From a virus (Duplodnaviria; Heunggongvirae; Uroviricota; Caudoviricetes), in the IMG/VR virus record IMGVR_UViG_2608642106_000003: a stretch of 30,648 bases of DNA; one strand, written 5' to 3'. This document shows, in pieces, positions 2 through 22,982 of the stretch. Position numbers and translations under genes: made by a program. Positions within the stretch are counted from its first letter, which is position 1. Every line of letters begins with the position of its first letter. The notes under the pieces were generated by a model. It ran no database searches, was not told the DNA's origin, and was given only the letters and a program-made list of their open reading frames with translations.

Positions 2-568
2 TTAGCCTCTTATCTTGAATTCTGCTATAACTTTGCCGATGAATACAAGGTCATTAATGTTCATATCAACAATGATATTCCCATAGTTAATCTTAACTTT
101 ATTATCAGGAATTCTAATAACTTGTTTTATAGAATGCTTTCCATCAATGGAGATTAACCAATCACCATCAACTACATCTGTGAAATCCCTCTCAATAAAA
201 TAAGAGTTATTCCCGTTTGATATCACAGATGGTGATGATAAACCATCAGGAATGAACACTTTGTCAAACATTAGTGTTCCTGCATCCAATAGCACTCCAT
301 CAATCAATTTTATTTTTTGAATATTGATGATGTCAGAAGTTAAATATTCATGTTTAGGAGGTAAGCCTGTTACCAGCCACTTTATGTTTACTCCTGTTTC
401 GAGCGCGCACTGAATAACCCAATCAGAAGGGAATGAATCTCTCATGTAGCGTGTAGCAAGACTGCTTTTTGATATGCCTAGTTGTTCACATAACGCCTGT
501 CTTGTAGTGAACCCATAGGCTTCAACCATCCTTTCGATAGCTTTCTTTCCACCTTGACTAAAATCCAT
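2..568 (-). CDS. Phage immunity repressor (186 CI-like, N-terminal helix-turn-helix)
   Basis: ORF 2..673 on minus strand; preferred ATG at 566-568 (MDFSQGGKKAIERMVEAYGFTTRQALCEQLGISKSSL...), ~188 aa; HTH-like segment near N-terminus; transcribed divergently from the early lytic operon as in P2/186 immunity regions. Confidence 0.65.
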   Translation of the reverse strand: MDFSQGGKKAIERMVEAYGFTTRQALCEQLGISKSSLATRYMRDSFPSDWVIQCALETGVNIKWLVTGLPPKHEYLTSDIINIQKIKLIDGVLLDAGTLMFDKVFIPDGLSSPSVISNGNNSYFIERDFTDVVDGDWLISIDGKHSIKQVIRIPDNKVKINYGNIIVDMNINDLVFIGKVIAEFKIRG

Positions 569-574
569 CGATTT

Positions 575-694
575 CACCTTGTGAACTTTATGGTTGACGA
601 TTTCAATTTGTGATCTTATAGTCGCATTGATTTCAAAATGTGACTTACAACTACTCGTCAATGTTAAACACACTTAAACAGGAGATGTTGCCTT
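575..694. promoter_or_regulatory. Divergent early promoter/operator region between repressor and first lytic gene
   Basis: Three TGTGA motifs at 580-584, 609-613 and 639-643 spaced ~30 bp apart; direct repeat GATTTCAA(T/A)(T/A)(T/A)TGTGA at 599-613 and 629-643; AGGAG-type RBS at 681-686 before ATG 695. Confidence 0.4.
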
Positions 695-2272: not shown

Positions 2273-2499
2273 TGGCTGATGCAATGGATCTCGTACAGCA
2301 GCGCGTTGAAGAAGAACGCCAACGCCATATCCGTGCTGCCCGTGCCAAAACGCCGGGCGTGTCCCGCGTGCTTTGCGTTGAGTGTGAAGCGCCAATTCCG
2401 CCAGCACGCCGCCGTGCCATTCCGGGTGTGCAGCTTTGCATTACCTGTCAGGAAATCGCAGAGCTGAAAGGCAAACATTACAACGGAGGTGCTGTATGA
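2272..2499 (+). CDS. TraR/DksA-type C4 zinc-finger protein
   Basis: 75 aa with CxxC...CxxC (CVEC ... CITC); start overlaps upstream stop (ATGA). Confidence 0.6.
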   Translation: MADAMDLVQQRVEEERQRHIRAARAKTPGVSRVLCVECEAPIPPARRRAIPGVQLCITCQEIAELKGKHYNGGAV

Positions 2500-3350
2500 G
2501 CACCATCCTGAAATGGGCAGGAAATAAAACCGCCATAATGTCCGAACTGAAAAAGCATCTTCCTGCTGGCCCGCGACTGGTTGAACCTTTCGCGGGTTCC
2601 TGTGCAGTGATGATGGAGACGGATTACCCCAGCTATCTTGTTGCGGATATTAATCCTGATTTAATCAACCTCTATAAAAAGGTTGCTGCTGATTGTGAGG
2701 CGTTTATATCTCGTGCCAGAGCTTTATTTGAGGAAGCAAACAGGGAGGTGGCTTATTACAACATAAGGCAGGAGTTTAATTACTCCACTGAAATTACTGA
2801 TTTCATGAAAGCGGTATATTTCCTGTATCTCAATCGTCACGGTTACCGTGGTTTATGTCGCTATAACAAGAGCGGGCATTTCAACATTCCCTACGGTAAT
2901 TATAAAAATCCGTATTTCCCTGAAAAAGAAATTCGCGCATTTGCAGAGAAAGCCCAGCGGGCAACGTTTATCTGCGCCAGCTTTGATGAAACGCTGGCGA
3001 TGTTGAAGGTGGGGGATGTGGTGTATTGCGATCCGCCTTATGACGGTACGTTTTCCGGCTATCACACTGATGGTTTCACTGAAGATGATCAGTATCACCT
3101 GGCATCCATTCTTGAACATCGGTCATCAGAAGGACATCCGGTCATTGTTTCTAACAGTAACACGTCTTTGACCCGGTCCCTTTATCGTAATTTCACTCAC
3201 CACTACATCAGGGCGAAACGCAGCATCGGCGTTGCAGCGGGGGAGGGAAAATTTGCAACAGAGATGATTGCCACTAAATCTGCTAATTGGTTTAGTGCCG
3301 ATTTTAGTAGGGGACGTGACTCTACTGTTATTTTCGGGGTGCAAGTGTGA
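2496..3350 (+). CDS. dam: DNA adenine methyltransferase (Dam family, GATC-specific by family)
   Basis: N-terminus [12 protein letters not shown] and catalytic DPPY motif ([10 protein letters not shown]); GGAGG RBS 2485-2489; start overlaps zinc-finger gene stop. Confidence 0.85.
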
Positions 3351-4177
3351 AAGAAATGCACCACGGAATTCATCATTTCCATGGGACGCCTGTCTGGGGA
3401 AGTGCTGGCGACGTTCATCGTATTGCGGTGAGCGGAGCTGGCGCTTTCGTCTCCTATGTACGACCAGATCAGATTGCGGCGTCCATTCAGCACGCTCAGG
3501 TCGTCGGCATTGATAACGGCGCATTTTCTGCATGGGTGCGTGGGCTAAAAATTAACTGGAGTGATTTTTATAAATGGCTCCTGAACTATTACCACCATCC
3601 TAAGGTCGCTTTTTTTGTCATTCCTGATGTTGTGGACGGAGGTGAACGTGACAATGATGCCCTGATAAACGAAGTTCCGAAAATGTTCTACGGGAAGGCA
3701 ACTCCCGTCTGGCATCTGCACGAGTCAATCGATCGGCTTATCGAGCTATGTCGTGAATGGCCTCGTGTCTGCTTTGGATCGTCTGGTGAATATGCGGCTA
3801 TCAGAACTGCGCACTGGCATCGTCGTATGCAGGACGCTTTTGAAGCAATTTATTGCCGACACAATTTCAAAACAGCTGTTCATGGTTTGCGCATGCTTGA
3901 CGGTCGTGTGTTGGGAAATTACCCACTGGCGACTGCCGACAGTACAAATCTTGCCTGCAATGTCCCCAAATTTAATAGCAAATATCCTGAGCTGACGCGG
4001 GCTATTCAGGAGGCTGAGTATTCGCGCAATCTGACGGAAAAGGAGCTGAAAGCTGTCATTCTGAAAAACCGTTGCGCAATTTTAAAAGGTGCAATTGAAG
4101 CTGTTCGCCCACCTTCAGTTTCTGATTGGCTGTCGAATGGTTTGCAGCCTTCACAGCTCGAACTGGAGATTGCGTAA
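3347..4177 (+). CDS. Hypothetical protein translationally coupled to dam; possible nucleic-acid-modification enzyme
   Basis: GTG 3347 overlaps dam stop (GTGA); alternative ATG at 3356. 276 aa, His-rich N-terminus; stop overlaps gene A start (TAATG). Confidence 0.5.
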
Positions 4178-6549
4178 TGAACTACAGCTATTCCTGGAAT
4201 GCTGAGAAAAAAGCAATCAATCCTTACGTAGAGACGGAAGAGCAATCTTCAGTTTCTGCGCTTTCAAACCTGATCGCTCTGTACGCTGCCGATAACGAGC
4301 AGGAACAGCTGCGCCGCGAGGCACTGAGTGATCAGGTCTGGGAGCGTTATTTCTTTAATGAATCCCGTGATCCTGTCCAGCGCGAAATGGAGCAGGATAA
4401 GCTCATTAGTCGGGCAAAGCTGGCGCATGAGCAGCAGCGTTTTAATCCAGATATGGTCATTCTGGCGGACGTTAATGCCCAGCCTTCCCATATCAGCAAG
4501 CCACTGATGCAACGTATTGAATACTTCAGCAGCCTGGGCAGGCCAAAGGCTTATTCCCGCTATTTGCGTGAGACGATTAAGCCATGTCTGGAACGGCTGG
4601 AGCATGTACGCGACTGTCAGCTATCCACTTCTTTTCGCTTTATGGCAAGCCATGAAGGGCTGGACGGCCTGCTGATCCTGCCTGAAATGAGTCAGGATCA
4701 GGTGAAACGCCTGTCCACCCTGGTAGCTGCGCATATGAGCATGTGCCTTGATGCAGCTTGTGGCGATTTGTATGTCACCGATGACGTTAAGCCAGAAGAA
4801 ATCCGCAAGACATGGGAAAAGGTGGCAGCGGAAACCCTGCGTCTGGATGTCATCCCGCCTGCGTTTGAGCAACTCCGCCGGAAAAGAAACCGCCGTAAAC
4901 CCGTGCCCTATGAACTCATTCCGGGTTCGCTGGCGCGTATGTTGTGCGCTGACTGGTGGTACCGGAAATTATGGAAGATGCGTTGCGAATGGCGGGAAGA
5001 GCAGTTGCGTGCTGTCTGCCTGGTCAGCAAAAAAGCATCTCCCTATGTCAGCTATGAAGCCGTGATGCATAAACGTGAGCAGCGCCGTAAGTCGCTGGAG
5101 TTTTTTCGTTCTCATGAACTGGTGAACGAAGACGGCGACACGCTGGACATGGAGGATGTGGTAAACGCCAGCAGCAGCAACCCTGCGCATCGCCGCAATG
5201 AGATGATGGCCTGTGTTAAAGGCCTGGAGCTTATCGCGGAAATGCGCGGTGACTGCGCCGTTTTCTACACCATCACCTGTCCGTCACGTTTCCATTCCAC
5301 GCTAAATAATGGCAGGCCCAACCCAACTTGGACAAATGCGACGGTAAGACAAAGCAGTGATTATCTGGTCGGCATGTTTGCTGCATTTCGTAAGGCGATG
5401 CACAAAGCCGGATTGCGGTGGTATGGCGTGCGGGTGGCTGAGCCGCATCATGACGGTACAGTTCACTGGCACCTGTTGTGTTTTATGCGCAAAAAAGACC
5501 GCCGCGCCATCACTGCATTACTGCGTAAGTTTGCCATCCGTGAAGACCGCGAGGAACTGGGCAATAACACTGGGCCGCGCTTTAAGTCTGAGTTGATTAA
5601 CCCGCGCAAAGGTACGCCAACAAGCTACATCGCGAAATACATCAGTAAGAACATTGACGGGCGTGGTCTGGCTGGCGAGATCAGCAAGGAAACGGGGAAA
5701 TCCCTGCGTGATAATGCTGAATACGTTAATGCCTGGGCGTCTCTGCATCGTGTTCAGCAATTCCGCTTCTTTGGCATTCCGGGGCGTCAGGCTTACCGTG
5801 AACTGCGATTGCTGGCTGGTCAGGCGGCAAGGCAACAGGGGGACAAAAAAGCAGGTGCGCCGGTACTGGATAACCCGCGCCTTGATGCCATCCTGGCTGC
5901 TGCTGATGCTGGTTGTTTTGCCACCTACATCATGAAGCAGGGCGGCGTACTGGTTCCCCGCAAATATCACCTCATCAGAACCGCTTATGAAATCAACGAA
6001 GAGCCGACCGCCTATGGCGATCACGGCATTCGTATTTATGGCATCTGGTCACCTATTGCAGAGGGCAAGATCTGCACTCATGCCGTGAAGTGGAAAATGG
6101 TTCGTAAGGCCGTTGATGTTCAGGAGGCGGCAGCCGACCAGGGCGCTTGCGCCCCTTGGACTCGTGGCAATAACTGTCCCCTTGCTGAAAATTTGAACCA
6201 ACAGGAGAAAGATAAATCAGCTGATGGGGGCACCAGAACGGACATTACCCGCATGGATGACAAGCAGTTGCACGATTACCTGCACAGTATGAGCAAAAAA
6301 GAGCGCCGGGAACTGGCAGCAAGGTTACGCCTGGTTAAACCGAAACGGCGTAAAGACTACAAACAGCGAATTACAGACCATCAGCGACTGCAGCTCGTCT
6401 ATGAGCTGAAGTCCAGAGGATTTGATGGTAGCGAGAAAGAGGTCGATTTACTCCTTCGCGGCGGCAGTATTCCGTCAGGAGCAGGCCTGCGTATCTTCTA
6501 TCGGAACCAGCGTTTGCAGGAAGATGATAAGTGGCGAAACCTGTATTAA
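4177..6549 (+). CDS. A: Rolling-circle replication initiation endonuclease (P2 gpA family)
   Basis: 790 aa from ATG 4177; HUH-like motif ([10 protein letters not shown]) and tyrosine motif (YIAKYISKN); position as P2 gene A. Confidence 0.85.
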
Positions 6550-6643
6550 TTACGCGGGTTAACAATTCGTGCTCTTAATAATACCAGGCATATCAGGCTG
6601 ATGAACGTAAAAAAACGTTTTACATCAGTAAGATTATTATATA

Positions 6644-6659
6644 CTGTAAATATAAACAG
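6644..6659. promoter_or_regulatory. LexA (SOS) box overlapping a promoter
   Basis: CTGTAAATATAAACAG matches CTGT-N8-ACAG with AT-rich spacer; TTTACA at 6619-6624 upstream; precedes ORFs 6702 and 6902. Confidence 0.6.
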
Positions 6660-6701
6660 TGGTTATATTTACAGTATTGCTTTGGTGTCATAGGAGGAAA
6701 G

Positions 6702-6890
6702 ATGCAGGACTATTTTTTGGAGTCTTTGAAGCTCCAGCGCATTGATTTTTTTCTTAAGCTTGTAGCGGCTAGTGAGTGTAGTGATGAAGAGAAGGGGCTG
6801 GCTTTGCAGTGGGTTTCTGAACTAACAGATGAACTCATGGCAAAAATCAGAACCCACGAATACAACCGCTCAATGGATGTCATCAGTTGA
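6702..6890 (+). CDS. Small SOS-controlled protein, candidate Tum-like antirepressor
   Basis: 62-aa ORF with AGGAGG RBS directly downstream of the LexA box; position matches the LexA-controlled tum locus of 186-type phages. Confidence 0.4.
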   Translation: MQDYFLESLKLQRIDFFLKLVAASECSDEEKGLALQWVSELTDELMAKIRTHEYNRSMDVIS

Positions 6891-6901
6891 GGTGACTTTT
6901 T

Positions 6902-7135
6902 ATGCGCATTGAAATAATGATCGATAAAGAGCAGAAGATTAGCCAGTCTACCCTGGACGCCCTTGAATCCGAGCTTTACCGCAATCTGCGTCCTCTGTAT
7001 CCCAAAACGGTAATTCGTATCCGCAAAGGTAGCTCTAACGGTGTGGAACTGACCGGATTGCAACTGGACGAAGAAAGAAAACAAGTGATGAAAATTATGC
7101 AGAAGGTGTGGGAAGACGACAGCTGGCTGCATTAA
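6902..7135 (+). CDS. dinI: DinI-family damage-inducible protein
   Basis: 77 aa starting MRIEIMIDKEQKISQSTLDALESELYRNL..., closely resembling DinI (MRIEV...); GAGGTG RBS. Confidence 0.75.
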   Translation: MRIEIMIDKEQKISQSTLDALESELYRNLRPLYPKTVIRIRKGSSNGVELTGLQLDEERKQVMKIMQKVWEDDSWLH

Positions 7136-7405
7136 GAAACGTTGCTGGCGTCTGAACTTGCTTCTGGCGTCAGCAAGGTTGAACAACGAGCTATGCGAGG
7201 CGTTAGTGTCAATTTGTTACCTTAACCACTATATATGCCAGGAAATTAACAGTTCTTAAGAAACAGCTTGCATGATCGAGCGCATTGAACTTAAGTTTAA
7301 GTAACGCAATCAACAGATGATATTGTTGTCTAAATTTTAAAGATAATCTGTTGAGGTTGTAGGCGTCGGAGTGTAGACTTCCGCGCCATGTGAAAAGGGG
7401 GAGTT

Positions 7406-7621
7406 ATGTCAAGCATCGCCGCATTTAGCCTGGGTAACCCAGTTGAACGTCTGGCAAGGGTTCTTAAAGAGAACCAGGACAAACTCAATCTTAGTAAAGA
7501 TGGTTTTGTGTCCGTAGACTTGTCTAACAAAAGAGCAATGGATGCCATCAAGGCACAGATGGATAAGCTTGAAGGCATCAAAACGAGCACTGTAAAAGAG
7601 AAAACTAATAGAACCAGATAA
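7406..7621 (+). CDS. Small hydrophilic hypothetical protein (cargo, first gene of 2-gene operon)
   Basis: 71 aa, strong RBS AAGGGGGAG before ATG 7406; stop overlaps downstream start (TAATG); AT-rich. Confidence 0.45.
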   Translation: MSSIAAFSLGNPVERLARVLKENQDKLNLSKDGFVSVDLSNKRAMDAIKAQMDKLEGIKTSTVKEKTNRTR

Positions 7622-8463
7622 TGGCAACATTACTTTTAGCAGTGATTTTGGTTAGTGGTTTTATTTATGTAAACCTATCACTTTCAACAAGATACCGATA
7701 TAAGCGTTCCAACGGCTGGGACGCTTATTTTTTTGTGGCTGCCTGGGGTATCGTTTTTTTTCTCCTTGGCGGTTTTTTCACCTTTATTTTGAACGTCAGC
7801 GGAGGGTTTCGTTGGCTGGCTAATGCCTTGAATCTAACACCTGACAGTTTTAATGGCATGTTGTCTTCATCGAAAGACAAACTTCAAAGAATAAATGAAA
7901 TCAAACAGATAGCATGGGTTATGATTTCAATTGTCCTCGCTGCGATTTCAGGTTTTGGAAATAAGTTACGCACATCACGTGGAGATCGTCGCTGGGATGC
8001 CTTAGCTAAAGCTGTGGGTAATAACGCTTTCGAATCATTACTCATGGAAGCGTCCGCAAGACAGTTTCCGATCATAGCAACTCTGTCGTCTCGCAAAATC
8101 TATGTTGGTCTTGTTACTTGTCCGGCGTTAGAAAACGGGCTTTCAGAGCACCTTGAACTTCTCCCGATGTTAAGCGGATATCGGGATAAAGATGATCTAA
8201 CGATTAGTATCACGACTAACTATCACCAACATTATCTTGATAGTGGTGTGATAAGTGGAATGTCTCGGCTTAATATCGAAGATTTCCGTGTGCTCATACC
8301 AAAAGATGAGGTTGAAACAATTTCGTTTTTTGATACTGAGACATATAACAAATTTAAAGAAAATGAAGCCAGGGATAGAAAGAACTGTCGAAAGATTGAT
8401 AGTAAAAGTGCATCTTCGCGCAGCAAGCGTGCAGCAGATGCTGAGTCAAATGATCGTGCATGA
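7621..8463 (+). CDS. Integral membrane protein with soluble C-terminal domain (cargo)
   Basis: 280 aa; three hydrophobic helices (approx. residues 3-20, 36-58, 96-113) then ~165-aa hydrophilic region; translationally coupled to 7406..7621. Confidence 0.55.
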   Translation: MATLLLAVILVSGFIYVNLSLSTRYRYKRSNGWDAYFFVAAWGIVFFLLGGFFTFILNVSGGFRWLANALNLTPDSFNGMLSSSKDKLQRINEIKQIAWVMISIVLAAISGFGNKLRTSRGDRRWDALAKAVGNNAFESLLMEASARQFPIIATLSSRKIYVGLVTCPALENGLSEHLELLPMLSGYRDKDDLTISITTNYHQHYLDSGVISGMSRLNIEDFRVLIPKDEVETISFFDTETYNKFKENEARDRKNCRKIDSKSASSRSKRAADAESNDRA

Positions 8464-8511
8464 CTATGCTGCATGAGATCGCATGATCGTTTGAGGATCG
8501 TTTTTGCTAGG

Positions 8512-8538
8512 GCCCGCCAGAACTGGCGGGCTTTCGCG
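8512..8538 (+). terminator. Putative intrinsic terminator after membrane-protein gene
   Basis: GCCCGCCAG/CTGGCGGGC inverted repeat (8512-8531) followed by CTTTCGCG; U-tract weak. Confidence 0.35.
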
Positions 8539-8580
8539 TAGATCATGCACCTGCATGAAAACTACTACATAAAGCGGGCA

Positions 8581-8600
8581 GGCGTGGCGGGGATACGAGC
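8581..8600. other. cos-like cohesive-end site
   Basis: GGCGTGGCGGGGATACGAGC followed by GCGCGCTCACTGAC...TTTTCAG resembles the P2 left-end cohesive sequence as recalled from memory. Confidence 0.4.
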
Positions 8601-8675
8601 GCGCGCTCACTGACAGTTTTCAGAAAAGTATATATAATCGCCTGAAAGATCTATACGTGCAGTGGAAATCATCAA

Positions 8676-9710
8676 ATGGATAAAAGATATCAGGTTTTTG
8701 TTAGTTCAACTTTTGCTGATCTTGAAGAAGAAAGGCAGGAAGTAATGCAAGCACTGCTGGAGCTTGATTGTATGCCAGCAGGAATGGAATTATTTCCAGC
8801 AACAAATAGTGATCAGTGGAGTTTAATAAAAAAAATAATTGACGATAGTGATTATTATATTGTTATCTTGGCAGGGCGTTATGGTTCAATTGGTCCTGAT
8901 GGAATAAGCTATACAGAAATGGAGTATCGTTATGCTTTGGAAACTGGTAAGCCAGTTATAGGTTTTATTCATAAAGATAAAAGTAACCTCCCCGCAAAAC
9001 GTTGTGAGTCAAACCCTGAAGGCGTAGAAAAACTAAAGGCTTTCGAAGAGCTAGTTAAAACAAAATTATGTCGTTTTTGGGAGTCTCCTGCAGAGTTAGG
9101 TAGCCAGGTTAGCAGAAGTTTGATTAGACTAATTAAAGAATGTCCTGCAATTGGGTGGGTTAAAGGAAATTTAGTAACTAATGATGGTGATGCAAAGGAA
9201 ATATTGAAATTAAAAAGGCGAATTGAGGAGCTTGAAAGTCAACTTGTATCAAGTATGACTGAAGCGCCTGCAGGTGCAGAAAAACTATCTCAAGGAGATG
9301 AGCTTTTTGAATTGGATTATGAATTCTGTGTGTCGCCTACAGAATGGAGACATAATGGTGAAGAATATACCGATAAGGTCAAATTAAGCTGGAACGATAT
9401 TTTTTCATATGTTTCGCCTTTGATGATAGATGAGATAGTGGATGATAAGCTATATAGTGCTTTAAATAACTGTGTGCGAAATGCAGTTCAAGATATCATC
9501 TATGAGGATTTTAAAGATATGAATTTATTATCTTTAAAAGTATCTAATTCTGATTTCCAAACAATAAAAGTGCAGTTTAGGGCGCTTGGGTTAATTATTA
9601 AAAGTGAAAAGAGTAGAAGTGTTAAAGATAAAGGTACTTATTGGACTTTAACACCGTATGGCGAAAATTTAATGACAACATTGAGAGCGATTAAAAAAAC
9701 TTTGGTATAG
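8676..9710 (+). CDS. DUF4062-like N-terminal domain protein, candidate anti-phage effector (cargo)
   Basis: 344 aa; N-terminus YQVFVSSTFADLEEERQEV matches the signature I associate with DUF4062; coiled-coil-like KEILKLKRRIEELESQL; unassigned C-terminal domain; AT-rich. Confidence 0.6.
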   Translation: MDKRYQVFVSSTFADLEEERQEVMQALLELDCMPAGMELFPATNSDQWSLIKKIIDDSDYYIVILAGRYGSIGPDGISYTEMEYRYALETGKPVIGFIHKDKSNLPAKRCESNPEGVEKLKAFEELVKTKLCRFWESPAELGSQVSRSLIRLIKECPAIGWVKGNLVTNDGDAKEILKLKRRIEELESQLVSSMTEAPAGAEKLSQGDELFELDYEFCVSPTEWRHNGEEYTDKVKLSWNDIFSYVSPLMIDEIVDDKLYSALNNCVRNAVQDIIYEDFKDMNLLSLKVSNSDFQTIKVQFRALGLIIKSEKSRSVKDKGTYWTLTPYGENLMTTLRAIKKTLV

Positions 9711-9712
9711 AT

Positions 9713-9746
9713 AACAAAGGCCGTTCATATATGAACGGCCTTTGTT
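9713..9746. terminator. Bidirectional intrinsic terminator between converging cargo gene and portal gene
   Basis: Perfect inverted repeat AACAAAGGCCGTTCATAT/ATATGAACGGCCTTTGTT, followed by GTTTTATTG on plus strand. Confidence 0.55.
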
Positions 9747-10784
9747 TTATTGTGTGGGAAAGCTATATGATTCGAATTTTATAATAACTTTACCAAGCCA
9801 TTTATTTACTTCTTGTATATGCTTTTGCAGTGGTGTTAGCTCATTTCGCACAAAGACGCGGCTGGCCTTCTCCACATCCCCAAACCCCCCGACATTATTA
9901 GGCATAATCCCCATCATTTGCGGCGGCACGCGGTGCGCAGCCATCATGTCATCACGGCTCACGTTTTTGATATTCAGAAACTCATCCTTCGCTGCGACTT
10001 CTGACAACGGGATAATCTGAAGTCCGTCCTTTTTGCCGTTAGGCGAGTACATAAACAGATTGCGGAAGTTGCCAGGGCCTTTGGAGCTTTTCATCGCATT
10101 GCGGAGGTTGTTCACATCCTCCTGGTTCTGCGCGGCATCGGTCATGTACATGATGAAGCCTGCATGACTACCGTTAATGTAATACTTGCGGCGGAACAGC
10201 GTGGCGGATTCGTTGAGCAGGGCTGACGGAATGGCAGAAAGATAACCGGGCAGGCCGTAGATCTCCTGGTTGATGTCCGGTTCCATCAGATGAAAAATAC
10301 TGCCTTTCGTGAACTGATACGGTTGCGTGGTCATGCCGTATTGCACAAACCAGTAGGTATCCAGGTCTAACCCGCGTCGGGTGTATTTTGCCAGGGCAGG
10401 TTCAAGGGCGATAACTTCACCGAAGCGGTTCGTGCGTTTTTCCAGGTAGGCGTTACCAAATACCAGATAGTCCTGCACAAAACGTGAAAACGCCTGCTGG
10501 CTGAGCAACGGGTGAGGGATATAGGTGCTGGTCAGAATATTGCACTTTACTGCAATCGGTGAGCTGTGATGCACGGCGGCGCGGAAGGTTCGCGCCAGTC
10601 CGTCAAAACTCACTGGCGGCTCATACCAGCGATCTGTCTGTACGCATTCCACATAGTCCAGCAGTTCGCGGCGGTCCAGTACTGGAATGGGATCGCCGAA
10701 GCTGAATGCTTCGGCTGAAGTCTGGCTTTTATGCTGGGTCTGGTTCTGCGACGCAGCGCGGTTCTTCTTACTCTTTCCCATCAA
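9747..10784 (-). CDS. Q: Portal protein (P2 gpQ family)
   Basis: 345 aa on minus strand, immediately downstream of and overlapping terminase gene; order Q-P opposite O-N-M-L as in P2. Confidence 0.9.
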   Translation of the reverse strand: MMGKSKKNRAASQNQTQHKSQTSAEAFSFGDPIPVLDRRELLDYVECVQTDRWYEPPVSFDGLARTFRAAVHHSSPIAVKCNILTSTYIPHPLLSQQAFSRFVQDYLVFGNAYLEKRTNRFGEVIALEPALAKYTRRGLDLDTYWFVQYGMTTQPYQFTKGSIFHLMEPDINQEIYGLPGYLSAIPSALLNESATLFRRKYYINGSHAGFIMYMTDAAQNQEDVNNLRNAMKSSKGPGNFRNLFMYSPNGKKDGLQIIPLSEVAAKDEFLNIKNVSRDDMMAAHRVPPQMMGIMPNNVGGFGDVEKASRVFVRNELTPLQKHIQEVNKWLGKVIIKFESYSFPTQ

Positions 10785-12547
10785 AAAATCTCCACAATAT
10801 TACTTGTATTGGCGGACTCGCCCTGCAGTGGTTCGTTAAACAGTGCGTGCATTGTTGCCCAGGCCAGATCGGCGTGGCTGGCTTCTTCGCTGCGGCTGGC
10901 TTCATAGGTCGGGCGGTTGCCGCTGGCGGTGGTGGCGCGACGGATTGCCATAAATGATTGCGCAATGTCGGTGTGCCCGGCGTCAAACTCCAGACGGCGG
11001 TGGCTGATAATGTCGTAGGCCTTGAGTACCAGCGCGTTTTTAACGTTGGGGTTGTAGACAAACTCCCGGACGGCAGGAAAGAACGCTTTCACGTTCTCAT
11101 AAACCCCGTGACCGACGCCGGTCGAGTCGATGCCGATATAGGTCACGTTGTACTGTTCGGTCAGTTTTTTGATGGCGTCCGCCTGGGCGCGGAAGTCCAT
11201 CCCGCGCCACTGGTGACGCTCAAGAATGCGGAACTTACCGCCCGGCACGGCTGGCGGAGCCACCACAACGCATCCGGCACTGTCGCCGTTCTGCGTACCT
11301 TTTGCCGGGTCATAACCGATCCACACCTCGCGCCAGCCAAACGGGCGCAGGGCCAGTGCATGAAAGTCGGTCCAGACTTCCCAGCTGTCCACCATGCACG
11401 CCTGCAGCTCGCTGAGCGGGAACACGGACGCGAGATCGTCCACGAACTCACACATCAGCAGGTTCTGGTATTCGTCCGGGCTGTACTCCATGCGCAACTG
11501 GTCGAGGTCGAACAGGTTACAGCCGCCGCGCACCGCATCTTCCACGGTGACTATCTGGCGGTATTGCCCGTCTGCGCACAGCAGGCCGGGGGCCAGATTG
11601 TTGTGGGACAGGTCGATGTCCACCTTATCGGCTTTGTTGCGCCCACGGTTGAACAGCGCACCGGACCAGAACGGATAAGCACTGTGTGTCAGGCTGGATG
11701 GCGTGGAAAAATAGGTTTGTCGCCATTTTTTGTGAATAGCCATACCGGATGCCACTTTGCGCAGCTCCTGGAATTTCGGTATCCAGAAATATTCATCCAG
11801 ATACAGGTTACCGTGGTAACTCTGGGCAGTGCGGGCATTGGTGCCGAGGAAATACAGTGTGGCCCCGTTGGGAAGCACCATCGGATCGCCTTTCAGCTCC
11901 ACCTCCACTTCTTTGGCAAAGTCGATGATGTACTGTTTGAAGACGTGGGCCTGTGCCTTGCTGGCGGAAAGAAAAATCTGGTTACGTCCGGTAAGCAGAG
12001 CGTCAATCAGGGCTTCACGGGCAAAGTAAAAGGTCGCGCCGATCTGGCGTGACTTCAGCAGATTGCGGATGCGGTTGGTTTTTCCGGCTTCCCACCAGTG
12101 GCGCTGGTAGTTGAACATGGAGGAATGGAAGATTTCTTCCAGCTTCTCAATCTGTTCATCGGTGAAGACATTCTTTTCCGGCTGACGGCGCGGGCCTTTG
12201 TTGCGGTTGGCGACGTTAGGGTTTAAGTCGGCTTCGTTGCCGCCATTGTTAAACTTGCCGATCCGCGCGTGGCGTTCCGACTGGCGCGCCAGCAGGTCAA
12301 TCTCTTTGAAATCTTTCCCTTCTTTGTGCTCCTTCATAATGAGCTGGCAGTAGCGTGCGGCGGTGGTGAGCTGCATCTGATCCAGCGGCCCATAGTCACC
12401 CCACTTGTCGCGTTTTTTCCAGCTGTGAACGGTTGCAACTTTCTCGCCCAGCATTTCAGCAATGCGGGCTACGCGGTATCCCTGAAAGTACAGCAGCATG
12501 GCCTGCCGACGGGGATCGAGATCTGCGGGTGTCAGTGTGGTGTTCAT
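10781..12547 (-). CDS. P: Terminase large (ATPase) subunit (P2 gpP family)
   Basis: 588 aa; divergent from the O-N-M-L operon; ATG at 12545-12547. Confidence 0.9.
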   Translation of the reverse strand: MNTTLTPADLDPRRQAMLLYFQGYRVARIAEMLGEKVATVHSWKKRDKWGDYGPLDQMQLTTAARYCQLIMKEHKEGKDFKEIDLLARQSERHARIGKFNNGGNEADLNPNVANRNKGPRRQPEKNVFTDEQIEKLEEIFHSSMFNYQRHWWEAGKTNRIRNLLKSRQIGATFYFAREALIDALLTGRNQIFLSASKAQAHVFKQYIIDFAKEVEVELKGDPMVLPNGATLYFLGTNARTAQSYHGNLYLDEYFWIPKFQELRKVASGMAIHKKWRQTYFSTPSSLTHSAYPFWSGALFNRGRNKADKVDIDLSHNNLAPGLLCADGQYRQIVTVEDAVRGGCNLFDLDQLRMEYSPDEYQNLLMCEFVDDLASVFPLSELQACMVDSWEVWTDFHALALRPFGWREVWIGYDPAKGTQNGDSAGCVVVAPPAVPGGKFRILERHQWRGMDFRAQADAIKKLTEQYNVTYIGIDSTGVGHGVYENVKAFFPAVREFVYNPNVKNALVLKAYDIISHRRLEFDAGHTDIAQSFMAIRRATTASGNRPTYEASRSEEASHADLAWATMHALFNEPLQGESANTSNIVEIF

Positions 12548-20395: not shown

Positions 20396-20993
20396 TCTGC
20401 TGCCACCGGGTTCAACTTCACTGGAGCGCCGACTGGCGCAAACCTGTAGCGGGATTTCTGATTTGCAGGTGCCGCTGCGTGACTTGTGGAATCCGGCTAC
20501 CTGTCCGGTCAGTTTCCTGCCTTATCTCGCCTGGGCGTTCTCTGTGGATCGCTGGGACGAGGGCTGGACAGAAAGCGTCAAGCGCCAGGTGGTGAAGGAT
20601 GCTTTTTATATTCATCAGCATAAAGGGACCACCAGTGCCGTGCGGCGGGTGGTGGAGCCGTTCGGCTTTCTGATCCGCATTATTGAGTGGTGGCAGACCG
20701 GAGAAACACCCGGCACGTTTCGCCTGGATATCGGCGTGCAGGACCAGGGCATCACTGAAGATACCTATCTGGAACTTGAGAGGCTGATAAGCGATGCCAA
20801 ACCATGTAGCCGTCACATGATCGGCATGTCCATCAATCTGCAGACCAGCGGCCCGTATTGGTTGGGGGCAGCCAGTTATCTTGGTGAAGAAATCACGATC
20901 TTTCCGTATATCAACGAAACAATTATTTCCGGCGGCACCGCGCATGAAGGCGGGGCGGTCCATGTTATTGACACAATGAGAGTGAATCCATGA
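20388..20993 (+). CDS. I: Baseplate/tail protein (P2 gpI family)
   Basis: 201 aa; overlaps J stop and H start. Confidence 0.8.
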   Translation: MNSLLPPGSTSLERRLAQTCSGISDLQVPLRDLWNPATCPVSFLPYLAWAFSVDRWDEGWTESVKRQVVKDAFYIHQHKGTTSAVRRVVEPFGFLIRIIEWWQTGETPGTFRLDIGVQDQGITEDTYLELERLISDAKPCSRHMIGMSINLQTSGPYWLGAASYLGEEITIFPYINETIISGGTAHEGGAVHVIDTMRVNP

Positions 20994-21732
20994 GCACAAA
21001 ATTTTATACCCTGCTGACGGATATTGGCGCGGCGAAACTTGCCAGCGCCGCCGCGCTCGGTGTGCCGTTAAAAATTACCCATATGGCGGTCGGCGATGGC
21101 GGCGGAACATTACCAACGCCGGACGCAAAGCAGACAGCACTGGTAAATGAGAAACGCCGGGCTGCGCTGAATATGCTCTATATCGACCCGCAGAACAGCA
21201 GCCAGATTATTGCTGAACAGGTGATCCCTGAAAACGAGGGCGGTTGGTGGATACGTGAAGTGGGCCTGTTTGATGAGTCCGGGGCATTGATTGCCGTGGG
21301 CAACTGCCCGGAAAGCTATAAGCCGCAACTGGCTGAAGGCAGCGGGCGTACCCAGACCGTGCGTATGGTGTTGATTACCAGCAGCACGGACAATATCACC
21401 CTGAAAATCGACCCTGCCGTAGTGCTGGCAACCCGCAAGTATGTGGATGACAAAATATCAGAGCACGAACAGTCACGACGTCACCCGGACGCCTCGCTGA
21501 CCGCAAAGGGTTTTACTCAGTTAAGCAGTGCGACCAACAGTGAATCCGAAATACTGGCCGCAACACCGAAGGCTGTGAAGGCTGCATATGATCTTGCAGC
21601 AGGTAAAGCATCCGCCAGTCACACACACCCGTGGAATCAGATAACGGATGTGCCTGCAGCTTCACTGACGGTAAAAGGCACCGTGCAACTCAGCAGCGCC
21701 ACTAACAGCACGTCAGAAACGCAGGCTGCCAC
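20990..21732 (+). CDS. H: Tail fibre protein (P2 gpH family), N-terminal part, interrupted by assembly gap
   Basis: MSTKFYTLLTDIGAAKLA...MAVGDGGG...ESYKP.LAEGSGR.QT.RMV matches recalled gpH N-terminus; contains SSATNS.SE..AATPKAVKA repeats; runs into the N-run at 21733. Confidence 0.8.
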
Positions 21733-22027
21733 NNNNNNNNNNNNNNNNNNNNNNNNNNNNNNNNNNNNNNNNNNNNNNNNNNNNNNNNNNNNNNNNNNNN
21801 NNNNNNNNNNNNNNNNNNNNNNNNNNNNNNNNNNNNNNNNNNNNNNNNNNNNNNNNNNNNNNNNNNNNNNNNNNNNNNNNNNNNNNNNNNNNNNNNNNNN
21901 NNNNNNNNNNNNNNNNNNNNNNNNNNNNNNNNNNNNNNNNNNNNNNNNNNNNNNNNNNNNNNNNNNNNNNNNNNNNNNNNNNNNNNNNNNNNNNNNNNNN
22001 NNNNNNNNNNNNNNNNNNNNNNNNNNN
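21733..22027. other. Assembly gap (295 N) inside tail-fibre gene
   Basis: Run of n characters; flanks are near-identical to each other. Confidence 0.95.
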
Positions 22028-22028
22028 T

Positions 22029-22982
22029 CACACGCACCCGTGGAGCCAGATAACGGATGTGCCTGCAGCTTCACTGACGGTAAAAGGCACCGTGCAACTC
22101 AGCAGCGCCACTAACAGCACGTTAGAAACGCAGGCTGCCACACCAAAAGCCGTGAAGGCTGTATATGACCTTGCCAATGGAAAACAACCTGCCGACGCCA
22201 CACTGACCGCACTGGCAGGCCTTGCCACTGCGGCAGACAAACTTCCGTATTTTACGGGGAATGATACAGCCAGCCTGACAACCCTGACTAACGTTGGACG
22301 GAATATTCTGGATAAAGCAAGCACACAGGCGGTTATTCAATATCTTGGTCTGAGCGATGCAAGTGGATACGTTGGACGCTGGCTGAATACCCGGGTTTTC
22401 ACCTCATCAGGTACGTACACCCCGACGCCAGGAACAAAACGGATCAGGGTCACAATAACTGGCGGCGGTGGCGGTGGGGGCGGCTGCAAGGCTATATCCA
22501 ATAATGAAACGTTTTTCGGTGCTGGCGGTGGGGCCGGTGGAACAATAATTTCAATAATGACCCCGACACAGAATAGTTATCCAGTCACTATCGGCGCAGG
22601 TGGGGCCGGTGGTGTTAGTGCGACGAACGGCACCAGTGGCGGGAATAGCGTATTTGCATCGTTAATTGCTCCTGGTGGCGCAGGTGGCGGGAAAGTGGGA
22701 GTTACAAATACAAACGGCGGTAACGGAGGTGTGCCGAGTACTGGCGATATCCGCATCACTGGTGGAAATGGAGGCGACGGTCAGTCCGGAAATATCAGCG
22801 TCAGCGGTGAAGGCGGAACATCGTACTGGGGTGGCGGTGGACGCGCAGGCGCTGGCGGTGGCGTTAGCGGTAAGGCATATGGTTCAGGCGGAGGTGGTGC
22901 ATACGATGCCGGTTATAGCGGAACCAGTATGACGGGCGGGAAAGGCGCTGCAGGGATTTGTATTATCGAGGAGTTTGCATAA
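22029..22982 (+). CDS. H: Tail fibre protein (gpH family), C-terminal part with glycine-rich distal domain
   Basis: Frame from 22029 reads HTHPWSQITDVPAASLTVKGTVQLSSATNS...KQPADATLTALAGLATAADKLPYFTGND (gpH-like), then Gly-rich segment GGGGGGGGCK...AGICIIEEFA; stop 22980-22982. Confidence 0.75.
   Translation, partial: HTHPWSQITDVPAASLTVKGTVQLSSATNSTLETQAATPKAVKAVYDLANGKQPADATLTALAGLATAADKLPYFTGNDTASLTTLTNVGRNILDKASTQAVIQYLGLSDASGYVGRWLNTRVFTSSGTYTPTPGTKRIRVTITGGGGGGGGCKAISNNETFFGAGGGAGGTIISIMTPTQNSYPVTIGAGGAGGVSATNGTSGGNSVFASLIAPGGAGGGKVGVTNTNGGNGGVPSTGDIRITGGNGGDGQSGNISVSGEGGTSYWGGGGRAGAGGGVSGKAYGSGGGGAYDAGYSGTSMTGGKGAAGICIIEEFA

Follow-up and report, generated by a model that had tools for sequence, protein, structure and literature searches.

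A cos-proximal accessory interval with two cargo slots and a Swarozyc-type DUF4062 gene in a P2-like prophage of Escherichia coli

Introduction

The main defense hotspot of P2-like phages is the gpA–gpQ interval, as set out by Rousset et al. (2022, PMC9122126) and in the re-analysis by Moura de Sousa et al. (2026, PMC13586616). How is the cargo of such an interval organized, and what might it do? These questions are addressed here for IMG/VR record IMGVR_UViG_2608642106_000003 (Caudoviricetes), a stretch of 30,648 nucleotides (nt) that was analyzed in full and is referred to as the window. The window is a P2-like prophage and matches part of the chromosome of Escherichia coli O9:H10 Res13-Lact-PEB20-37-A at 100% identity. 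The original prediction, made from the sequence alone, described positions 7137–9746, between dinI and the portal gene, as one AT-rich accessory island with three unrecognized genes, a sequence resembling the cohesive-end site (cos), and terminator hairpins. Our analysis indicates that this interval is very probably a cos-proximal accessory (defense) hotspot of a P2-like E. coli prophage, with two cargo slots and a Swarozyc-type gene in one of them.

Two cargo slots around the cos block

Boundaries were mapped by BLAST of the window against 13 related loci, and the distribution of flanks and cargo was surveyed in 5426 complete E. coli genomes. Rather than a single unit, the variable DNA forms two blocks (7207–8455 and 8607 to about 9835) that flank a conserved cos block and are exchanged separately, with junctions that are sharp and recurrent (7206/7207, 8455/8456, and 8606/8607). 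The left slot (7207–8455, 1249 bp, plus strand) contains genes for proteins of 71 amino acids (aa; 7406–7621) and 280 aa (7621–8463). Homology to nine related prophages ends at 7206/7207 (at 7133 and 7145 for two others) and restarts at 8456–8458, and in locus L015 the left site is empty, with 7 nt separating the flanks. The right slot holds a single-gene moron (8607–9746, plus strand) that consists of a promoter-like site, a gene for a 344-aa DUF4062 protein (8676–9710), and a terminator; homology to two loci with other cargo (L003 and L004) ends at 8606/8607. All three predicted cargo genes are intact open reading frames (ORFs) on the plus strand, and RefSeq calls the same three in the identical O9:H10 chromosome. 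The outer limits originally proposed for the island, 7137–9746, are roughly right, except that on the right the variability takes in roughly the last 90 nt of the portal gene.

The cos block that divides the two slots (8456–8606, 151 bp) is 98.8–100% conserved in all 13 related loci, whatever their cargo. It includes a 19-nt cohesive-end sequence, GGCGTGGCGGGGATACGAG (8581–8599, plus strand), which matches the annotated P2 cohesive end (cosL/cosR) at 14 of 19 bases and has flanks that are also conserved with P2 (AAGCGGGC on the left and GCGCGC on the right); the sequence first described as cos-like is a P2-type cos site. No difference in the 19-mer was seen among the 14 E. coli loci compared (L001–L004 and L012–L021, where L001 is the record of the window itself), and the divergence of the right-hand cargo begins 7 nt after it. 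The expected strong hairpins were also found, at 7138–7180, 8509–8534, and 9713–9746. The GC-rich hairpin within the cos block (8509–8534; free energy [dG] −27.2, z −4.6) and the one at 9713–9746 (z −6.8 on the plus strand and −8.6 on the minus strand) fold far better than shuffled sequence.

The conserved flanks were found in 1282 of the 5426 genomes, whereas the left cargo was present in 52, the right cargo in seven, and both together in three; the cargo genes are clearly not conserved across all related phages. Beside an identical DUF4062 gene, the left slot occurs in nine states (eight contents and one empty site), namely a DUF4145 gene, a 141-aa gene, a DUF2971 gene, nothing, a three-gene set, an HNH-like gene, a pair of 387- and 178-aa genes, a DUF8087 gene, and the 71- and 280-aa pair of the window. 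Conversely, the right-slot neighbor of the 71- and 280-aa pair can also be SieB, as in E. coli ECCRA-119, or two small genes on the minus strand. The same trio is present in a diverged P2-like prophage of Klebsiella quasipneumoniae (L025 and L026; 3737–6032), in which the 72-aa, 280-aa, and DUF4062 proteins have 85, 87, and 70% amino acid identity, respectively, to those of E. coli. The combination therefore predates recent shuffling in E. coli or arose more than once. The apparent second copy of the right cassette in each genome is most likely a match of the palindromic terminator to itself on the other strand, as is seen in a self-match. These alignments, together with the base composition given below, establish where the island lies, how far it extends, what its composition is, and that its contents can be exchanged. 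The two slots are probably swapped by recombination within the conserved flanks, that is, dinI, the 151-bp cos block, and the body of the portal gene Q.

A variable cargo locus that spans cos between A and Q, as had been proposed from the P2 genes tin and old, is supported by the gpA/DinI and portal flanks and by the position of tin and old at the same place in P2. The flanking genes, the adjacency to cos, and the rapid swapping of cargo between near-identical prophages are all as described for the P2-like hotspot. However, the published hotspot is treated as one, whereas here two slots with fixed junctions surround a 151-bp cos block. In P2, tin and old both lie to the left of cos and occupy the left slot only; the right slot is empty, with 186 bp and no gene between cos and Q. 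The cargo of the window has been catalogued previously. Table S5A of Rousset et al. (2022, PMC9122126) contains the exact five-gene order WP_001154434, WP_001217575, WP_000094764, WP_021556032, and WP_001513676, and Table S5B contains the exact DUF4062 sequence in the line "67 DUF4062 63", in which 67 is taken as the system number. No sign was found in that source that the DUF4062 protein had been assayed, and a search of the full-text literature found no mention of the WP accessions of the three cargo genes.

The gene pair of the left slot

The first gene of the left cassette (7406–7621, plus strand) encodes a 71-aa soluble protein (WP_000094764) that belongs to phrog_9843 (E = 1.4e-36). Its stop codon overlaps the start codon of the second gene (7621–8463, plus strand) in the sequence TAATG. 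The second gene encodes a 280-aa inner-membrane protein (WP_021556032; phrog_3630) with three predicted N-terminal transmembrane helices, a predicted Sm/Hfq-like beta-barrel at about residues 150–236, and a charged C-terminal helix. In the model, the C-terminal domain is a five-stranded bent beta-barrel that can be superposed on Sm proteins, a likeness to the Sm/LSm/Hfq fold, and a search of a viral fold library returned only weak Sm-like matches. Positively charged loops follow helices 1 and 3, and on this reading of sequence and model the C-terminal domain would be cytoplasmic. The arrangement offers an architectural analogy to MscS-type channels, but neither sequence nor structure comparison found an MS_channel domain in the 280-aa protein. 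No Pfam, NCBIfam, or PADLOC match was found for either protein of the pair.

The 280-aa family is large. A word-indexed search had suggested a small family, but in an exhaustive profile search the number of representatives (clusters at 50% identity) reached 2889 at E ≤ 1e-3. Conserved motifs include LSSRKxYVG, LLPLLSGYRDKD, and ISFFD..TY. A homolog of the small protein is encoded directly before the 280-aa homolog in prophages of Aeromonas (46% identity) and Enterobacter (33% identity); the pair lies before the tape measure gene in the HK97-like Aeromonas prophage and between tail genes K and I in the lambda-like Enterobacter prophage. At the edge of a P2-like prophage of Shewanella, a small gene in the same position encodes a product with only 15% identity. 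The pair is also found in the P2-like phages SEN4/SEN5 and ST15-OXA48phi14.1. This travel pattern is the signature of a self-sufficient moron. In addition, the Sm-like barrel was observed as a stand-alone small gene (compare phrog_23864) in JQ780327 (224–610) and PP003917 (421–765), phage genomes of Cronobacter and Pseudomonas in which it lies no more than about 1 kb from an end. An inverted repeat upstream of the 71-aa gene (7310–7354) was considered as an operator and rejected, as it is not conserved in orthologous cassettes.

The recurrence of the pair in lambda-like and HK97-like prophages makes it a candidate exclusion or abortive-infection module, in which a translationally coupled two-gene operon would act at the membrane. 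We put this forward tentatively, as a guess from the hotspot position and the pairing with SieB or Swarozyc. Somewhat less likely is the broader proposal that the cassette is a new anti-phage or exclusion system, widespread as a moron of temperate phages of the P2-like, lambda-like, and HK97-like kinds. Its effector would be the inner-membrane protein, with a cytoplasmic Sm-like barrel that assembles into a ring. Like SieB and other exclusion morons, the pair is a small AT-rich cassette between conserved phage genes and encodes an inner-membrane protein, although neither sequence nor profile searches linked it to SieB or to other described exclusion proteins. To our knowledge, the cytoplasmic Sm-like barrel has no known counterpart among superinfection-exclusion proteins.

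It may equally be that the pair is not anti-phage at all and serves lysis timing, envelope physiology, or another form of lysogenic conversion, at a site that merely tolerates insertions. Several findings fit this explanation and weigh against a defense reading of the interval. None of the five proteins encoded between gpA and Q has a match at E ≤ 0.1 in PADLOC-DB v2.0.0, a library in which models for tin and old were not confirmed and which stands here without a direct comparison of the cargo with tin and old. For the three cargo genes, this null result is what the PADLOC check suggested with the original prediction returned, and it can be attributed to a database that predates the relevant papers. 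The PADLOC searches likewise revealed no homology of the left pair to known defense proteins, and 10 distant homologs of the 280-aa protein were likewise without a match. Furthermore, partition systems and toxins such as cytolethal distending toxin are found as non-defense cargo at the same hotspot (Rousset et al., PMC9122126), the pair sits within tail-gene clusters in the lambda-like and HK97-like prophages, and a LexA box upstream together with a hairpin that has no T-run suggests that expression might be induced by the SOS response rather than occur in the resting lysogen. On the other hand, the pair assorts like the surrounding defense cargo and is often found beside SieB or Swarozyc, and six of eight randomly picked unknown cargos were defensive, in P4 rather than P2 hotspots (Moura de Sousa et al., PMC13586616). 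The pair is also missing from most relatives, which implies that it is not needed for phage growth.

The Swarozyc-type DUF4062 protein of the right slot

Of the three genes that had been listed as unrecognized, the one in the right slot (8676–9710, plus strand) is now recognizable. Its 344-aa product, WP_001513676, is a Swarozyc-type DUF4062 protein and a putative TIR-like NADase. Residues 6–87 match Pfam DUF4062 (PF13271; E = 1.5e-29), and residues 1–341 align with KpSwz of Klebsiella pneumoniae (PDB 10wc, 11cq, and 11cv; E = 6.6e-69) at 38% identity overall; identity declines from 51% for the TIR-like domain to 30% for the stalk and 25% for the auxiliary domain. The auxiliary domain by itself matches KpSwz residues 211–324 (E = 9.9e-8). 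E83 pairs with the catalytic E97 of KpSwz, the residue mutated (E97A) in the deposited PDB 10wc construct, and E81, E83, Y84, Q47, and W48 are invariant in 32 homologs. In the AlphaFold model (pLDDT 82), the N-terminal domain matches plant and bacterial TIR domains, the SPARTA TIR-APAZ protein, and DNPH1; a structure search against a PDB set that predates the KpSwz entries recovered only TIR and NDT folds. The C-terminal part of the model has a beta-hairpin (residues 210–238) with W224 at its tip, followed by a winged helix. These elements match the "hairpin anchor" (W238/Y239) and the "HTH/winged fold" (HTH, helix-turn-helix) described for KpSwz, and in the model W224 matches the W238 anchor. 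Judged by sequence, the right-slot protein is thus a full-length homolog of KpSwz that keeps the catalytic glutamate and has the predicted folds.

KpSwz is a portal-activated DUF4062 TIR-like NADase that acts by abortive infection and is auto-inhibited as dimers to hexamers (10.64898/2026.05.01.722283). An E. coli homolog, UPI0002A39D72, also protects cells (Osinski et al., 10.64898/2026.05.01.722283), and the five Swarozyc proteins tested, one of which is from E. coli, were picked for similar auxiliary domains (10.64898/2026.05.01.722283). The protein of the window shares with KpSwz the DUF4062 domain, the stalk, the auxiliary domain with hairpin and winged helix, and the organization as a single gene on a mobile element. 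It differs in the hairpin, which has W-R in place of the W-Y of KpSwz, and a sequence comparison detected no similarity between the resident portal and the trigger of KpSwz, the portal of Bas14. NADase activity, the identity of the trigger, and a defense phenotype of this particular allele would follow by analogy with KpSwz. By the same homology, the right slot would be a self-contained cassette for a protein with an N-terminal TIR-like NADase, a helical stalk, and a C-terminal sensor domain. The protein would be held auto-inhibited in the lysogen until the sensor domain binds a structural protein that an infecting phage has assembled, with the portal ring as the likeliest candidate.

The gene stands alone, with its own promoter-like site and terminator, and is found with nine left-slot partners when the empty slot is included. 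This pairing shows genetic independence only and not sufficiency for defense. The promoter-like site (CTGACA-17-TATAAT; 8610–8638, plus strand) matches the sigma-70 consensus at 11 of 12 positions and lies within sequence that is missing from loci with other cargo. Full-length homologs with about 60% identity are common in Proteobacteria, including Pseudomonas, Burkholderia, and Xanthomonas, and some are morons as well, for instance one within the head module of a Mu-like prophage of Pseudomonas and one on an integrase island of Burkholderia. No close homolog was found in deposited phage genomes.

It is possible, if rather doubtful, that the DUF4062 protein is active with a different trigger, such as phage replication intermediates or a different protein of the capsid or tail, or with a substrate other than NAD+. 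The 25% identity of the auxiliary domain to KpSwz leaves room for a trigger that is not a portal, and the subfamily of Pseudomonas, Burkholderia, and Xanthomonas (about 60% identity) is closer to the protein of the window than is KpSwz (38%). The nucleoside-hydrolase folds DNPH1 and BcmB are among the structural neighbors. Moreover, Eva01, a related DUF4062 protein, is reported to sense replication-associated processes, and its escapers implicate replication proteins rather than the portal (10.64898/2026.06.25.731849). Eva01 belongs to the Evangelion proteins (Eva01–04) of Staphylococcus aureus resistance plasmids, which share with the protein of the window the DUF4062 core, the E-Y and Q/W motifs, and a required auxiliary region, and for which the same logic of NAD+ depletion and abortive infection as in Swarozyc is reported (10.64898/2026.06.25.731849). 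That paper, however, puts Swarozyc in a separate lineage, and the auxiliary regions differ, as far as they can be compared by description. Against a different trigger or substrate, the alignment of the auxiliary domain with its KpSwz counterpart runs the full length of the domain and takes in both the tryptophan at the tip of the hairpin and the winged helix at the C terminus, and the tested Swarozyc proteins, the E. coli protein among them, shared similar auxiliary domains.

The neighboring portal gene

The DUF4062 gene lies 36 nt from the resident portal gene Q (9747–10784, minus strand). Between these convergent genes is a predicted bidirectional terminator with a 15-bp stem (9713–9746), which is common to the DUF4062 cassette and the convergent Q-P operon and belongs to the cassette in every locus that carries the DUF4062 gene. 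The 3′ end of Q (9747–9835, minus strand; the last 30 codons or so) is hypervariable and moves with the right-slot cargo. The Q tail ending in IIKFESYSFPTQ is common to each of the 13 E. coli loci that carry the DUF4062 gene (the window, L001, L002, and L012–L021, L001 again being the window's own record). In the two loci with other cargo (L003 and L004), Q has 96–97% identity over residues 1–310 but only 50–56% over residues 311–344, and the K. quasipneumoniae prophage with the 70%-identical DUF4062 gene has yet another Q tail. A functional co-variation of the Q tail with Swarozyc was considered and rejected, given that the other-cargo loci each have their own tail and the K. quasipneumoniae tail differs. 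Linkage (hitch-hiking), rather than co-adaptation, seems enough to account for the association between tail and cargo.

With somewhat less confidence, it can be argued that a portal-sensing NADase located 36 nt from a resident portal would need a mechanism that tolerates that portal. The sequence gives no indication of such a mechanism. A second case near a resident portal was seen in Pseudomonas sp. MRSN 12121 (L024), where a 62%-identical DUF4062 homolog (5001–6059) is located in a Mu-like head-morphogenesis module, about 2.4 kb downstream of a Mu-type portal gene that ends at 2591.

Base composition

The AT-richness originally noted between dinI and the portal gene was borne out by sliding-window analysis. 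The fraction of guanine and cytosine (GC) in the interval 7137–9746 is 0.394, whereas the other 2610-nt windows of the whole stretch (n = 389) have a minimum of 0.457, a mean of 0.546, and a standard deviation of 0.03, so that the composition is far from uniform. Codon composition points the same way. The GC at third codon positions (GC3) is 0.25 in the 344-aa gene, 0.35 in the 280-aa gene, and 0.44 in the 71-aa gene, compared with 0.61 in portal gene Q and 0.71 in terminase gene P. The onset of the AT-rich zone, at about 6400, is earlier than 7137 and includes the conserved orf62 and dinI (GC 0.43–0.46). The idea that AT-richness is a functional property of the cos packaging or regulatory region, and not the mark of imported genes, could draw on orf62-dinI, which is somewhat AT-rich and kept in 1282 genomes, but it is already refuted by the cos intergenic block, which with a GC of 0.495 is not AT-rich and is the least AT-rich segment of the interval, by the GC minimum in coding cargo (GC3 of 0.25–0.35), and by the replaceability of that cargo, the left slot being empty in one locus.

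Two other regions of low GC were noticed. An apparent second AT-rich island at 21.5–22.25 kb is an artifact, for a run of 295 N at 21733–22027, within a tail-fiber gene (ORFs 20990–22114 and 22059–22982), produces a false GC dip to 0.25. At the left end of the window, a 223-aa ORF (2–673, minus strand) has a GC of 0.356 and a GC3 of 0.33, as low as in the cargo island; by eye, and without a family search, its product resembles a CI-type repressor.

The conserved left flank and gpA

To the left of the cargo, ORF and profile searches identified the gene for the replication endonuclease gpA, which ends at 6549, followed by orf62 (6702–6890), a conserved 62-aa gene of phrog_698, and dinI (6902–7135). 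On the other side, the same searches identified portal Q and terminase P (10781–12547, minus strand). The RefSeq annotation of the identical record is in agreement with this gene order. A hairpin just 3′ of dinI (7138–7180, plus strand; dG −23.8 kcal/mol, z −2.5) is an inverted repeat in the conserved flank of the left slot. It has no T-run and is retained through compensatory changes in the K. quasipneumoniae locus L025. An exact LexA/SOS-box consensus, TACTGTAAATATAAACAGT, was observed at 6642–6660, within an 18-nt inverted repeat (6641–6677) and 42 nt upstream of orf62-dinI. It is the sole such site in the window, in which 0.25 would be expected by chance, and it suggests SOS-controlled transcription directed at the left cargo slot. 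A search of the whole window against Rfam at gathering thresholds found no RNA family.

In the identical genome, RefSeq labels gpA as frameshifted (region 4126–6549). However, gpA is intact as a 790-aa ORF from the ATG at 4177, which overlaps the stop of an upstream 276-aa ORF, and L015 and L020 have the same 790-aa form called after a 273-aa gene. An annotation artifact is the probable source of the pseudogene label. That label had been the one point in favor of viewing the cargo genes as decaying remnants without present function, a view that is largely refuted and very improbable, because all three cargo ORFs are intact, identical proteins recur across 609 to more than 1000 contigs, the residues of catalytic and structural importance do not vary, and gpA itself is intact in a form called in other genomes. 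The 276-aa ORF (3347–4177), of unknown function, lies between a Dam-like methylase gene (2436–3350) and gpA. It is missing from ECCRA-119 (L004), where dam abuts gpA, and it may be a further variable accessory gene.

Implications

The window contains a catalogued combination of cargo at a known hotspot, made up of a member of one recently characterized defense family and one candidate system. The additions made here are modest and consist of the two-slot structure, the Swarozyc-type identification, and the structure and mobility of the left pair. The junctions and the empty-site sequence allow surveys of this hotspot to score the two slots separately. The left cassette is a cheap-to-test candidate from a large uncharacterized family, and a presumed portal-sensing NADase beside a resident portal lends itself to studying how prophages escape autoimmunity from the defenses that they carry. 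Taken together, these results mainly confirm known biology, namely that P2-like prophages hold a rapidly swapped arsenal beside cos.

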